DNA from: an uncultured archaeon | GTDB lineage: Archaea; Thermoplasmatota; Penumbrarchaeia; JASLWR01 | DNA length: 53,786 bases | Assembly (NCBI GenBank): GCA_964342815.1 | Contig: CAYFHS010000018.1 | Coordinates: 11,631-65,416, forward strand | Direction of reading: 5' to 3' | Part shown: positions 5,501-17,171 of the stretch, piece after piece | How positions within the stretch are numbered: position 1 is the first letter of the stretch | Layout: each line of letters starts with the position of its first letter | Made by a program: the position numbers and the translations under genes | Notes under the pieces: model-generated | What the model was told of the DNA's origin: nothing | Databases searched by the model: none | Seen by the model: only the letters and a program-made list of their open reading frames with translations

Positions 5501-6110
5501 AATGATGGATAGTTCCATATTAGCAGGGATGTTCATCATGAGTCAGGAAAATATCGAAAAAGTATTCCCTCTCACAGCAAAATACAGCTTTTTTTTACTG
5601 AAGACAAATGATGATTTGCAGGCAAAGACTGACGCTATAGAGAAAGAGATGAGTTACTATGGTATGGATGCTGCTGTGACTGAGGATCTGGCGAGATATA
5701 ATCTGGATTTCGAGGCGTCTTATCTTCGAATATTTCAGATATTCCTGATACTGGGAGTTTTCATTGGTACCACTGGTATAGCAGTGATGGTCTACCGATC
5801 GGCATCCAAGAGAAAATATGAGATAGGTGTGCTGAGATCCATAGGATTCTCAAAAAGAAGGGTCGCATTTTCCCTTGTACTAGAGGCAAGTATCACAAGT
5901 CTCTCAGGTATAATAATAGGTGTTTTGGGAGGAATGAGCGCTGCTTATCTATCATTTTCCGCTTGGGGCGGTACCGGTTTTGTTTTTCCGGTGTGGGCGG
6001 TTATATTAATACCTGCTTCAATCTATCTCATTTCGGTAATATTCTCGCTCATTCCTGCTTATCTATCGTCAAAAGTAGAGCCGGCGGTCTCCCTTAGAGC
6101 CCAGGAGTGA
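2526..6110 (+). CDS. Large FtsX/MacB-like ABC transporter permease (duplicated)
   Basis: Two FtsX TM blocks with R.REIGILRSQG and RKYEIGVLRSIGFS motifs; ends KVEPAVSLRAQE. Confidence 0.88.
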   Translation: MQNSPTIFFRISLLFILMIIIILFILRFRLNPYFKIGLRNTTKRLPQAVSLVIGGVIGTSVIAGALITGDSLNEMVADQSVKALGDIDVAVTSPKFFSQSLFTVINDDPILNKLTDKVAPMIALTGTTRHNESGALENAVNVYGIDNSIYEFGFFHYSGEKIPNIQENECVINSILARNLKVNRGDLITLKLGNTNPSDAFFLTSSDQFHEIELSIKEVSENKGLAGINLLSRNTNVNNLFLRLDVLQRRMGIEGNINTVILSNSGDEFSGVEKGRDVSKRLREILDREIGYIEAGYSVQTDDQSVIITHENVLFDSEDLAPLEKGRINSQLLTYFVDSISHNGSILAYSTITGLDLARDKRFGDFYSEGDSLVLEKIKNDGIIISNWTAMALGAGLHDFLSINYTILDDNYGEHTQSMELRVEAVIELDGKASNKWLMPELPGIKNIDTCGEWDPPFDIDLSALQSRDLDYWDQYRGIPKGYIDLDLAQSIFGNFQGNLTHLRIETMGNHENVLEKLNNTVGINNYGISIKEVKAEHLATGESLWVLTGMFLAFGALVVGAGALLIINIFRNMALDRKREIGILRSQGVKRSNVAVTFFTEGIVYSIASAGIGTAVGVGVGSGIVHALNTIWSRSVESNDIHLYFSYYTLLISFALGLFICIISVIIPVIQVSGMKITDAISRGRTEKSSHGIRFPRTGIILMIIGILLSCFLLNSFNYEIALLGPVLILLGSGLYAHSRKPSHCGILDLTAAIMIFYVIIYGLVNMKGDGGPTVTIFMFNGIILIAAFFLLYRNRFMWFSRKLAGRGAEGMIAVSGMIRQKGVFLSVLSVAFVVFIITALSVIGSYQSANLENQLEGHTGGYDIRVLSSIPFTGDLAKSNFTFLDDTSVTQIRSVGEPGGTCSNMNARFPPQILGVPEDFVENNNIKFADHIYEGVGDRGVWRALSDPSEQHIPVVVDKNTLIWVYNSALGDTFSITGDMGDEWRIKVVGMMDSSILAGMFIMSQENIEKVFPLTAKYSFFLLKTNDDLQAKTDAIEKEMSYYGMDAAVTEDLARYNLDFEASYLRIFQIFLILGVFIGTTGIAVMVYRSASKRKYEIGVLRSIGFSKRRVAFSLVLEASITSLSGIIIGVLGGMSAAYLSFSAWGGTGFVFPVWAVILIPASIYLISVIFSLIPAYLSSKVEPAVSLRAQE

Positions 6111-6701: not shown

Positions 6702-7910
6702 CTAATCATTAAGGAAGCTGTCGATTCGATCCAAAGCCTCTCCCAGCATTTCCTCTTCGGGTAGGAAGACTATCCGGAAATGTCCTTTGCCGTAAACAGG
6801 GCAGAAACCGGAACCGTGTACGGTAAGAACATGACACTTGTTTAGAATATTCAATACAAAATCCTCATCATCCTGGTATCTGGGGTCTTCTATCTTCGGA
6901 AAGATGTAAAAAGCTCCGCCTGGAAGTCGTGTGGAAAGTCCCTCGATCTCGTTGATCCTTTTGTAGGTAAAATCCCTTCTCTTCTTAAGTTTGGTGTTCA
7001 GTTCAGCCAGGTAATCGTCATACCTCTTCTCGAATGCCTTCATGAGACCGTACTGTGAGGGTACGTTGGAACAGAGTCGGGACCTTGCCTGTTTGAGTAC
7101 TCCGTCCCAGATATCCACCATGGCACCCGTGGGATCGTTCAGAGCCATGTATCCGCAGCGCCAACCAGGAGCAAGAAATACCTTTGAAATTCCATTCAGT
7201 ACCATCAGCGGGACGTCCTTGCTCAACGAACCCATGTTCACCGCACTTTCCTCAAAGCTCATCTTATCATATATCTGGTCCGATACAAGATACATCCCTT
7301 TGTGCTCCCCCACAACGTCGATTATCTCCTTCAGAGTCTTTTCTCCGTAGAGAGCACCGGTTGGATTGTTGGGATTTATCACTGCCAAGGCCCTGGTATC
7401 ATCGGTGATCTTTTTCCTGATATCGTCAATGTCCGGCTGCCAGTCCTCCTCTTCCATAGTTCTGTAGGGGACGGGATCTCCGTTAAAGAACCGCGTGTAA
7501 GTGATATAGGGCGGATAGCTCGGCCCTGGAATTAGAAACCTTTCCCTTTTCTGAAAGGTGGCCCCAATAAGTATCTGTAAACTTTCCGTCACTCCGGTTG
7601 TGACAATTACGTTCTCTTGAGATATCGGATTCCCTTCCCTATTTTCCTTCACTACTATCTTTTCCAACAGTTCTGGGATCCCAGCTGAGGGACCATAGAA
7701 GTTGTTACCCTTTTGAATCGCATCTATGCATGCTTTCTTAACAAAATCAGGGGTGTCGAAATCATACTTTACCGGATCACCAATATTCAGCTTTAATATA
7801 TCGATCCCACGTCTCTCCAGCTTGGAGGCATAAACCTCTATGTCCCGGATAGCGTATTTTATCTCGTTTGCTCTTTTTGTGACGGGGATAGTATACTTTG
7901 AACTCGTCAT
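6702..7910 (-). CDS. alaA: Class I/II PLP aminotransferase, Pyrococcus-type alanine aminotransferase
   Basis: YAIRD, LNIGDPVKYDF, INPNNPTGALY, GISKVFLAPGWRCGY (PLP lysine), GAFYIFP, HGSGF. Confidence 0.85.
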   Translation of the reverse strand: MTSSKYTIPVTKRANEIKYAIRDIEVYASKLERRGIDILKLNIGDPVKYDFDTPDFVKKACIDAIQKGNNFYGPSAGIPELLEKIVVKENREGNPISQENVIVTTGVTESLQILIGATFQKRERFLIPGPSYPPYITYTRFFNGDPVPYRTMEEEDWQPDIDDIRKKITDDTRALAVINPNNPTGALYGEKTLKEIIDVVGEHKGMYLVSDQIYDKMSFEESAVNMGSLSKDVPLMVLNGISKVFLAPGWRCGYMALNDPTGAMVDIWDGVLKQARSRLCSNVPSQYGLMKAFEKRYDDYLAELNTKLKKRRDFTYKRINEIEGLSTRLPGGAFYIFPKIEDPRYQDDEDFVLNILNKCHVLTVHGSGFCPVYGKGHFRIVFLPEEEMLGEALDRIDSFLND

Positions 7911-14646: not shown

Positions 14647-14963
14647 GAATATTGTACCTTAGCTTTTTTCGCTACGCCCAATATTTACTCCCTTTCGTCG
14701 CCGTTCCCTTAATTGAAGGACTTAAAGAGGCCATAACGTTAGTTATGCGAGTGCGCTAGCACCGCGATGAGCGATAGCGAACGGAGTATTACAAACTGCT
14801 TGAAATCAGCATAGGAGTGTCTCTTAATCATGGCTGTGAGCGGTCATATATCATTTGTCGGGAACCGCTGCCGTTATACGATGCTCAAATTAGCCGAAGA
14901 GACAATTTGACATTCGTTTTTTTCCATGGTCCGGTTCCCGAACCGATGTGCCGTTTATTTTCA

Positions 14964-15225
14964 AGTGACAAATGGCAAGTCGATTTTGTTGGCGGTTCTA
15001 TTCGAAAAGATCGGAAACTAACTAAGATTGATAATCAGTTTATTTTGTCCTGACCTGTCATGTAAAGACTGGAACAAAGTGACTGTCTTCTTGGTAAAGT
15101 TGAGCCAGAATGGATCGGCTTTACGGGAGAAGCCATTTGAGCAAAGCGAAAATGGATTCCGCAGGACCGAAGGGGCTGCGAATACAGATATATCATCGGG
15201 AAAATCTACATTTCCATTTGTCACT
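14964..15225. mobile_element. MITE-like non-coding insertion with 12-bp terminal inverted repeats
   Basis: AGTGACAAATGG (14964-14975) / CCATTTGTCACT (15214-15225), plus GATTTT/AAAATC; contains the 63-bp dispersed repeat; no target duplication seen. Confidence 0.4.
15062..15124 (+). repeat. 63-bp dispersed repeat, copy A
   Basis: 61/63 identical to the reverse complement of 19664-19726. Confidence 0.95.
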
Positions 15226-15362
15226 CTCTGTGATTAAATGAATTATTATCATCAAAGCCCATACCATACAAATACTCGATTTCACTCTTCATATATCTCT
15301 TCTGCAAAATCTAAGAGAAATTTTAATATATACATTAGATATATATTGTATATTGTGAGAAT

Positions 15363-15602
15363 GTGGACATCCATACATATCCCATTAAATTGAAAAGACA
15401 TGCTGCCCTTCGGTTGATCGAACGCTTTGACATGAGTATTGAGGAATTACGCCATATGATCAAGACTGGTAGACACATTAAAAAACCGAAGAGTGAAGGA
15501 GATATTGGAATTATCGAAAGAACGATTGGCAAGAGAAAGATTCGGATTAAGTTCAAAGTCGAACAAGGAGTTGTATGGATCATTACAGTTGAAGGAGGAT
15601 AG
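15363..15602 (+). CDS. DUF4258-like (BrnT/RelE-fold) putative toxin
   Basis: 79 aa; HA..RL.ERF.MS.EEL motif; ends V.WIITV; 4 nt before the partner gene; TATA-like TTTTAATATA at about 15322. Confidence 0.7.
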   Translation: MDIHTYPIKLKRHAALRLIERFDMSIEELRHMIKTGRHIKKPKSEGDIGIIERTIGKRKIRIKFKVEQGVVWIITVEGG

Positions 15603-15606
15603 TACA

Positions 15607-15900
15607 ATGAGTAATTGCCCCGAATGCGGCCAACCACTTGGAAAAGAAAAGAGAGAATTATCGCCTGGTGTATATGCCGATGTTGAGATATGTTCCCAAT
15701 GTGAAGACGAGTGGATAGATGAAGACGAATACGAAAAGCTCAGGTCATTATTCAAACGAAAGGCATTCAAGATCGGAGGAAGCCTTGCGGTAAGAATTCC
15801 CAAAGAAATTGCGGATGCGGTTGGCCTACATGATGGAGATGAGATGAACATTTCCATAGCCAATCATAAAGTAATAATTGAACCGGCAGTATCTTCGTAG
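15607..15900 (+). CDS. Putative antitoxin: YgiT/MqsA-like zinc finger fused to an AbrB/MazE/SpoVT DNA-binding domain
   Basis: Start moved to ATG 15607 (GGAGGA at 15593-15598); CPECG...CSQC, then RKAFKIGGSLAVRIPKEIADAVGLHDGDEM. Confidence 0.85.
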   Translation: MSNCPECGQPLGKEKRELSPGVYADVEICSQCEDEWIDEDEYEKLRSLFKRKAFKIGGSLAVRIPKEIADAVGLHDGDEMNISIANHKVIIEPAVSS

Positions 15901-15968
15901 AGTAGATTATATATTGGGCTTTGATGATAAAGAAAAAATTCATTTTCCAGAGAGCAGTTTGTAATTTC

Positions 15969-16090
15969 GCATAACGTCTTGCGGATTCCCGAAGTTGCGT
16001 GGGTGGGAGGAGTTCTATCTCACAAGATCGGAGGGGGAGCAATTTGGGTGAAGGCCGACAGGCCGAGAACCGGTAATCCGCTAGTTAGGC
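15969..16090 (+). other. attC-like recombination site, 122 bp
   Basis: GCATAAC-GTCTT-GCGGATT...CCCGAAGTTGC/GCAATTTGGG...AATCCGC-TA-GTTAGGC; long imperfect hairpin; spacers 5/2 nt are atypical for canonical attC. Confidence 0.6.
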
Positions 16091-16154: not shown

Positions 16155-17171
16155 TCAATCCTTCTTGCTGCGTTTCCACATTGAGGGATATGTCAGGGTC
16201 TCCATCAATACTCTCGTCGTCCGAATCCCGATCCCTTTATCCGCCTTCATCACCGCTCCGGTGCTAAGTGTGGCCTCACCAAGTGCCACAACCTCGCCCT
16301 TGCGCGTGAGAAGCGCTACCCGGTCCCCGACCTTGATCCCGTTCTCCACCTTTGATATACCGTTCACCCCCACGTCAGCACCGTGACATATTGCATCCAC
16401 CGCAGTGTCTTTTAAAATAATCTTCGGAAGTCCGCCTAACATCGTTTCCATGGGTTTTACTAACTTTCTAATGGCGGACTCATCTCCATTTTCACCATAA
16501 GTAATCCACGCATCCTTCAAGCTCTGGAGCTGAGCGCACTCCGACTCGGGAAAAAGCCCGGCTTTCGTGCGACGGAGCTCTTTGAGATGCGCACCAACGC
16601 CTAGTGCATCACCGATATCAACAGCGAGTGTACGGATATATGTACCGCCCTGGCATCCCACCTTGACCAAAACGTTCCTTCGGTCAAGTTCCAGAAGTTC
16701 CAGGTAATAGATCTCACGTACCCGCAGCTGGCGTTTCACCGCACTCTTTACAGGCGGAAATTGGTATATCCTGCCGGTAAAATCCCGAATGACTGATTTC
16801 AATCTATCCTTTCCTACCTCCTTATGCAGGTGGATTATCCCGACATATTCCTTTCCCGCCCCCAGAAGTGCGTCAACCATCCGTGTAGCCCTCCCAAGAG
16901 CTACCGGCAGAACTCCGGTTACCTGCGGGTCAAGTGTACCGCAGTGACCTGCCTTGTCGATTCCAAATATATCACGAACCCATGCTGATACCTGATGACT
17001 GGTGGGATTCTTCGGTTTGTCGATATTCACGACGCCCTTGTCTACCAGATCCTCCACAGAGCGTTCTTCAGGGATCGTCCCGACATTCAGATTTATTGGG
17101 TCGAGATCTTTGATGAGCAGGTTCTTTGGTTCTTTTTCCCGCTCGATGGGTAGTAAATTTTCACTGGACGT
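16155..17171 (-). CDS. truB: H/ACA pseudouridine synthase Cbf5 (TruB family) with PUA domain; probable ACG start at 17171 (first canonical start is GTG 17057)
   Basis: GVVNIDKPKNPTSHQV, KAGHCGTLDPQVTGVLP, GGTYIRTL..DIG; conserved LP...LLIK...G..PEERS N-terminus lies upstream of 17057. Confidence 0.95.
   Translation of the reverse strand, partial: TSSENLLPIEREKEPKNLLIKDLDPINLNVGTIPEERSVEDLVDKGVVNIDKPKNPTSHQVSAWVRDIFGIDKAGHCGTLDPQVTGVLPVALGRATRMVDALLGAGKEYVGIIHLHKEVGKDRLKSVIRDFTGRIYQFPPVKSAVKRQLRVREIYYLELLELDRRNVLVKVGCQGGTYIRTLAVDIGDALGVGAHLKELRRTKAGLFPESECAQLQSLKDAWITYGENGDESAIRKLVKPMETMLGGLPKIILKDTAVDAICHGADVGVNGISKVENGIKVGDRVALLTRKGEVVALGEATLSTGAVMKADKGIGIRTTRVLMETLTYPSMWKRSKKD

Follow-up and report, generated by a model that had tools for sequence, protein, structure and literature searches.

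A likely integron-like gene cassette with a three-way-junction recombination site in the chromosome of an uncultured archaeon

Results

The Locus and the Predicted Cassette

The window, i.e., the whole stretch of 53,786 nucleotides that was analysed, belongs to an archaeal contig, Cbf5 and the adjoining housekeeping genes all being archaeal, and no tRNAs were found in it. A predicted cassette is flanked on its left by a small zinc-ribbon gene and on its right by the 3' end of cbf5, which is encoded on the minus strand and ends at 16155. The features of the cassette and of its borders are as follows.

14725..14769, plus strand: collapsed site at the left border (covariance model R1, filters off: 24.8 bits, E 1.3e-3)
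14743..16084, plus strand: predicted cassette, 1342 nt (sequence, junction comparison)
14751..14762, plus strand: conserved cassette-start hairpin GTGC-GCTA-GCAC (sequence, family comparison)
14788..14800, plus strand: arm X of a cassette-specific stem (pairs with X' over 13/13 bases)
14958..15230, plus strand: conserved non-coding leader block (common to cassette c of contig C69, ~88% identity in the 3' part)
15061..15125, plus strand: miniature repeat of 65 nt inserted in the leader (absent from the C69 homologue; no part of the cassette system)
15236..15261, plus strand: inner inverted repeat, left arm (brackets the two genes; C69 homology stops just before it)
15363..15602, plus strand: putative toxin, 79 aa (DUF4258, PF14076, 21.8 bits, below the cut-off of 25)
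15607..15900, plus strand: antitoxin, 97 aa, N-terminal zinc ribbon and AbrB/MazE (PF04014, 43.5 bits, cut-off 24.7)
15915..15945, plus strand: inner inverted repeat, right arm (inverted-repeat search)
15953..15965, plus strand: arm X', partner of X
15969..16090, plus strand: attC-like recombination site (model R1: 119.7 bits, E 1.8e-24)
15969..15975, plus strand: first box of the site, GCATAAC, followed by a 5-nt spacer (sequence)
15981..15991, plus strand: left stem arm of the site (alignment structure)
15992..15998 and 16039..16045, plus strand: arms of hairpin A (alignment structure; length variable across the family)
16053..16064, plus strand: hairpin B, the side hairpin GGCC-GACA-GGCC (co-varies across the family)
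16071..16081, plus strand: right stem arm of the site, followed by a 2-nt spacer (alignment structure)
16084..16090, plus strand: second box of the site, GTTAGGC (sequence)

An earlier sequence-only reading had described a solitary cassette ending in an imperfect hairpin, and most of its particulars held. The strings GTTATGC (14742–14748), GCATAAC (15969–15975) and GTTAGGC (16084–16090) are exact in letters and position, the first, at the cassette start, is the exact complement of the second, and the 122-nt element is bounded by the second and the third. The 5-nt (15976–15980) and 2-nt (16082–16083) spacers, the GGCC-GACA-GGCC side hairpin at 16053–16064, the two small co-oriented genes inside the cassette (15363–15602 and 15607–15900) and the position just downstream of cbf5 were likewise confirmed. 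The "imperfect hairpin" is corrected to a three-way junction with two inner hairpins, "solitary" held only in part given the second, collapsed site at 14725–14769, and the claim that array and integrase are lacking holds only within the 53-kb window. For the claimed circle of 1342 nt (14743–16084) the arithmetic of the unit held and the circle itself was not found.

The sequence TAGTTA is identical at both junctions (14740–14745 and 16082–16087), and the crossover can therefore not be placed more finely from the window locus alone. The collapsed site at the left border consists of CATAAC (14732–14737), a loop GTTA and GTTATG (14742–14747), followed by the start hairpin; its interior is deleted. 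The start hairpin is present after the left junction (14751–14762) and absent after 16090, exactly as expected for a crossover inside GTTA. When the sequence before insertion is reconstructed, it reads as an imperfect palindrome with two box-like halves; it may have been a secondary target, or else it may be the stump of an older site. What the locus adds beyond the arrays described below is one complete unit, at what may be a secondary site, on a clearly archaeal contig, so that both insertion junctions are visible.

Cargo, Leader and Repeats Inside the Cassette

The cargo is read as a toxin–antitoxin pair, in which the toxin is putative, with a weak family match, and in which activity is inferred. 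No match to the toxin was found among solved structures, and the antitoxin also matches TIGR01439 and TIGR02609. The two genes are co-oriented and 4 nt apart, and the pair is kept at 68–70% identity in six other genomes of the class. In these genomes the homology begins 40–50 nt 5' of the first gene, which fits the inference that the pair has its own promoter. A sigma-70 promoter scan was set aside as not meaningful for an archaeon. In a same-genus copy (G001 C33; L032 1882–2332) the upstream region and the antitoxin are kept and the toxin gene is absent.

The leader block (~270 nt) is bounded by a 15-nt inverted repeat (14964–14978 / 15211–15225) and is shared only with C69:1540–1753. Its substitutions are not protein-coding-like, the window having TGA where C69 has GGA, and it is possible that the block is a structured non-coding element. 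The first ~490 nt of the window cassette show 75–88% identity to cassette c of C69, in which another gene pair is encoded on the opposite strand. Such a homologous leader with different cargo is taken as cargo swapping. The array on C69 (L014, 483–1094 and 1774–2623) is read as one of toxin–antitoxin cassettes; the pair in its cassette b is paralogous to that of the window, and another of its pairs, on the opposite strand, encodes 197 aa and 106 aa.

A related leader copy with 12 differences, found on contigs of two runs, is without the 65-nt repeat (joint 15060>15126). Repeats of this kind, 65–66 nt long with ends GTAAAG...CTTTAC, occur genome-wide in dozens of copies, single as well as head-to-tail, among other places at C17:65376–65571, C3:22871–23129 and many contig ends, often where contigs break. 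The copy in the window leader has no obvious target duplication.

In two cassettes that are not related to each other, that of the window and one on contig C7 (L017 ~5720–5781 and 7340–7365), the cargo is enclosed by inner inverted repeats. The repeats of both have a GAATTAT-like core in common, and homology between related cassettes ends there. It is conceivable that these repeats hint at a second level of cargo exchange.

Structure of the Recombination Site

Folded as a single sequence the 122-nt element is no better than shuffles (DNA z = 0.17), its RNA fold gives no signal on either strand (z of -0.87 and 0.09), and an Rfam search of the window at gathering and permissive thresholds returned nothing relevant. 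The site is judged real because comparison with its relatives supports it, and not on the basis of the single-sequence fold. When 20 copies were aligned, 91% of cells were paired in a 33-pair structure, compared to 25–46% with the partners slid, and 66 compensatory cells were observed against 25 in shuffles, a number that 0 of 500 shuffles reached. Changes on both sides were found in 15 of the 33 pairs. The structure is made up of an end-box helix, an inner (L) stem of 10 pairs, and a junction with hairpins A and B; the inner stem is 92% paired and 6 of its pairs changed on both sides. The family structure also includes a further small hairpin just past the second box, which belongs to the start of the next cassette. 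Conservation of the unpaired junction motifs extends to other families of the class and to a Bacteroidia contig. The site family and its structure are thus shown by comparison.

The end boxes fit RYYYAAC / GTTRRRY, with the family variants GTATAAC, GCCTAAC, GTTATGC and GTTATAC, and some deviate at one position. The interior departs from that of a canonical attC, for which an unpaired central spacer of ~5/6 nt and a plain variable terminal loop are expected: the spacers are 5/2 nt, and two hairpins branch from a three-way junction at which unpaired motifs are conserved.

In each of the 20 copies the gene-sense strand gives the better fold (mean -49.4 compared to -38.5 kcal/mol), and G-T wobbles outnumber A-C mismatches by 42 to 13. 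Both counts favour the gene-sense (top) strand. They are a proxy and not an assay, and the strand used remains an inference, as does folding as a single strand. The same two observations also speak for an element that acts as RNA, i.e., as a structured 3' region or a non-coding RNA made from the gene-sense strand. This reading is very unlikely, as no Rfam family was matched, the genes of many cassettes run antisense to the site, and both the box rule and the recombinase link described below would be left unexplained.

Related Sites, Arrays and the Box Rule

The window's own genome (G000) was searched as an assembly of 4.35 Mb in 116 contigs that is 88.9% complete. A search for similar hairpins, set beforehand as a check, was positive: about 20 sites were found (21 related copies, 66–72% identity), several of them in arrays. 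The end of contig C14 has seven sites in 9.7 kb, contig C69 (4.2 kb) is filled by four, and C2 has two, and on each of these contigs the criterion of at least two co-oriented sites less than 4 kb apart is met. Single full sites are present on C42, C4, C47, C68, C1, and C7, with weak second model matches ~1 kb from those on C42, C4, and C7 (filters off; E 6.5e-4 to 0.064). The window itself has one full and one collapsed site. Of 37 genomes from the class, 9 give matches to the site model, as do 13 of 151 sampled from the phylum.

In the arrays the first box of a site is the complement of the second box of the preceding site, i.e., of the start of its own cassette, and it is not complementary to the adjacent box. 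Nine cassettes are informative: eight fit their own start, none fits the adjacent box, and one fits neither. Included in the eight are the window, one case from a genome of the same family and one from another family with a new variant (TTAAGC/GCTTAAC). The orthologue of the single exception in a same-family genome obeys the rule. Across families the co-varying box variants are TTATGC, TTATAC, TTAGGC, and TTAAGC. The crossover is placed inside GTTA because the first boxes in the arrays match their own cassette starts. This supports, although indirectly, the earlier prediction that the cassette boundaries fall at GTT. The arrays and the box rule are shown, and the rule is the logic of integron cassettes; excision itself is inferred.

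A second pairing is specific to each cassette. Arm X is found ~46–62 nt into the cassette and arm X' in the roughly 15 nt that precede the first box, and in at least eight cassettes their sequence differs from cassette to cassette while the position is kept.

The box rule is symmetric under strand reversal and does not fix the orientation of the unit. The orientation given here, with the site at the 3' end, rests on parsimony at the window locus, where the unit is complete, and on one comparison between C7 and the same-genus genome G001. The C7 cassette and its G001 counterpart have only the first ~125 nt after the junction in common, up to the inner repeats, and their upstream sites are of different subtypes. 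This difference in subtype argues that a site moves together with the cassette located 5' of it. Genes occur in either orientation relative to the sites, and in many cassettes they are antisense.

Evidence for Mobility

Neither the joint 14742/16085, nor a circle, nor an empty site was found in four runs, in which coverage was thin and only contigs were available. All four contigs with an identical Cbf5 carry the cassette or run into it, and contigs from other samples that span the junctions are unchanged. An empty site was also sought in relatives. In the same-genus genome the flanking genes are separated by ~920 nt of unrelated sequence that includes an N gap, and in G003, a genome of the same family, neither of the two left-flank genes was detected by tblastn within 4.2 kb of cbf5. 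Across the populations sampled the cassette appears to be fixed, and it may be inactive. Its mobility is inferred, no empty site, circle or read-level joint having been found.

It is therefore fair to ask whether the sites are merely repeated structural or regulatory elements (terminators, insulators or REP-like elements), and whether the cassette look arises by homologous recombination between repeats without a dedicated recombinase. The fixation of the cassette in all samples, the failure to find a circle or an empty site and the strongly conserved interior sequence speak for this. Against it, first box and own cassette start co-vary although kilobases apart, X/X' is cassette-specific, genes are found in either orientation and the link to a recombinase recurs. 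We consider this explanation unlikely.

A Candidate Recombinase

No protein of the 88.9% complete assembly reaches the cut-off for IntI (TIGR02249, cut-off 265). A search for tyrosine recombinases, also set beforehand, found four in the genome, among them a candidate without the IntI insertion that adjoins sites in several genomes. This best candidate, a protein of 391 aa encoded on C7, is the closest to the IntI model, which it matches with 203.5 bits in two pieces, the IntI-specific region (model positions 169–233) being skipped. When compared with VchIntIA (2a3v), 70 IntI residues face 29 of the C7 recombinase. The catalytic residues R, K, H-x-x-R, H, and Y are invariant. The protein passes the archaeal XerA model NF040815 with 222.4 bits and its best solved relative is P. 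abyssi XerA (4a8e). Because the XerA score is just over the cut-off of 220, the possibility remains that it is a housekeeping enzyme, and its identity as the enzyme of the system is inferred.

The C7 recombinase has ~95 extra N-terminal residues that are not part of XerA, of which the N-terminal ~70 form a conserved alpha/beta domain. The predicted fold of the domain has a mean pLDDT of 81.5 and is best matched by the N-terminal domains of two helicases, T4 UvsW (Z 7.3) and archaeal XPB (Z 6.1). With such scores kinship cannot be told from a merely similar arrangement, and the likeness is no more than a possible lead. The domain (L059 1501–1800, residues 1–100) is conserved from archaea to Bacteroidota, with W37, K42, W44, and P47.

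The gene for the C7 recombinase is located 1.8 kb from a site and faces it. Relatives are encoded 0.9–2 kb from sites in G010, G014, G003, and G011, which together with G000 makes five genomes of the class, and the same proximity is found on one Bacteroidia and one Spirochaetota contig. The proximity of site and recombinase gene is thus shown. The sites on the two bacterial contigs (Bacteroidia, L086 4718–4843; Spirochaetota, L078 8984–9104) have the same build; each is located ~2 kb downstream of the recombinase gene and faces it. The cassette of the Bacteroidia contig has a 20-nt inverted repeat that links its start and end.

In G000, G010, G014, G003, and the two bacterial contigs the recombinase gene is found past the 3' end of the array, towards which it points, and not at the 5' end as in the intI–attI layout. 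The arrangement is the mirror image of that layout, and how insertion would take place there is unexplained. The recombinase gene also has a site beside its stop codon. This site consists of the outer stem and the first box, after which palindromes replace the usual interior, and in G010 the box of this site matches the start of the adjacent cassette. It is possible that it serves as the docking site of the system, though at the "wrong" end. Such stop-codon sites were seen at L017 5600–5690 (C7 ~141600–141690), L063 2560–2650, and L086 ~2620–2720, where TCC/TCG is followed by palindromes or direct repeats. No second box by which the gene would come to lie within a site was found upstream of the recombinase gene in G000, G001, G010, or the Bacteroidia contig.

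The obvious alternative is an ordinary integron cassette with a true attC, the classical IntI either being missing from the 89%-complete assembly or acting from another cell. In favour of this the boxes are close to RYYYAAC/GTTRRRY, the site is 122 nt in size, the array spacing is below 4 kb, and arrays without an integrase (CALINs) have been published for archaea, including Thermoplasmatota. On the other hand no protein is at the IntI cut-off, the spacers are 5/2 and not ~5/6, a three-way junction is conserved in the interior, every one of the 20 copies has its better fold on the gene-sense strand, and a recombinase other than IntI accompanies the site in several genomes, archaeal as well as bacterial. 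A classical integron is therefore unlikely.

It may also be proposed that the unit is a non-autonomous single-stranded DNA transposon of the IS200/IS605 kind, which inserts 3' of TTAG and is moved by an HUH (Y1) transposase. The strand bias, the structured end, the tandem insertion and the insertion beside a tetranucleotide without target duplication all fit. Against this no Y1 transposase (PF01797) was found in the 88.9%-complete assembly. The IS200/IS605 family (IS608) is moreover not known to recognise its ends by a co-varying 7-bp box duplex. Such a transposon is a very improbable explanation.

Discussion

We propose that the stretch from 14743 to 16084 is one cassette of a chromosomal integron-like site-specific recombination system, with the inferred involvement of a Xer-type enzyme, and consider this the likely explanation. 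The cassette would carry a folded recombination site at its 3' end, and the first box of this site pairs with the bases that open the same cassette. If the cassette were excised by a crossover in GTTA, the product would be a circle in which the two boxes, the X/X' outer stem and the start hairpin are brought together in one branched structure. The unit would have been inserted between the small zinc-ribbon gene and the 3' end of cbf5, at a short palindrome or at the remnant of an older site. The partner enzyme would be the Xer-type tyrosine recombinase encoded on another contig, without the IntI insertion and with the conserved N-terminal domain of ~70 aa. The initial suggestion that this is an orphan cassette from a non-canonical tyrosine-recombinase system is thereby supported. 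It would have been refuted by the absence of related sites or of a recombinase from the genome and by presence/absence boundaries in relatives that do not fall at the GTT positions, and neither condition was met.

It is tempting to go further and to regard the system as a second kind of integron, present in archaea and bacteria, in which a Xer-like recombinase without the IntI helix and with an N-terminal domain of its own captures and shuffles cassettes at folded three-way-junction sites, by the strand opposite to that of classical integrons and anchored at the opposite end of the array. At present the balance tips slightly against this bolder reading. Integron integrases are held to have gained single-strand recombination by way of one extra helix (PMC7790495). 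If the bolder reading is true, the same border logic without the extra helix and with a differently built site would point to a second, or an ancestral, route to gene capture, and cassette arrays would be worth looking for in a wider range of hosts.

Several known systems come close. Integrons and CALINs of archaea have been described as chromosomal cassette arrays, mostly without a nearby integrase, the CALINs being spread over several phyla, with Thermoplasmatota among the hosts (Ghaly et al., 2022, Sci Adv, PMC9668308). The IntIs of these systems have the IntI-specific domain and their attCs the standard fold, which differs from the present site. The motifs of our site were not found in the supplementary text of that study, which may not list all of its sites. 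The IntI insertion is not fully conserved in an "integron-like" subgroup of simple tyrosine recombinases (Smyshlyaev et al., 2021, PMC8138268), but that classification assigns no cassette system or site to the members without it. In the literature searched there was no description of a cassette system run by an enzyme lacking the insertion, only of integrase-less arrays (CALINs). XerCD is reported to act on the folded single-stranded attP of phage CTX, an IMEX (Val et al., 2005). The resemblance lies in a Xer-type recombinase without the IntI helix and in a folded single strand as substrate, the latter being inferred in the present case. The difference is that a phage genome integrates at dif via the host XerCD, that neither cassette arrays nor a three-way junction are known in that system, and that its enzyme is not known to have an additional N-terminal domain.

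A close comparison can also be made with the sedentary chromosomal integrons, such as the superintegron of Vibrio cholerae with its ~125-nt VCR attC sites. Like the archaeal system these have arrays with long sites that are alike within a genome, inverted end boxes of the AAC/GTT type, a first box that pairs with the start of its own cassette, frequent toxin–antitoxin cassettes, and stray cassettes at secondary sites. Classical integrons recombine the bottom strand. The archaeal system differs from them in that no IntI was found and the candidate enzyme is without the IntI insertion, in the 5/2-nt spacers and the three-way junction of its site, and in the conserved 5'-end hairpin and cassette-specific outer stem of its cassettes. 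It differs also in that the gene-sense strand folds better and that the recombinase gene faces the 3' end of the array.
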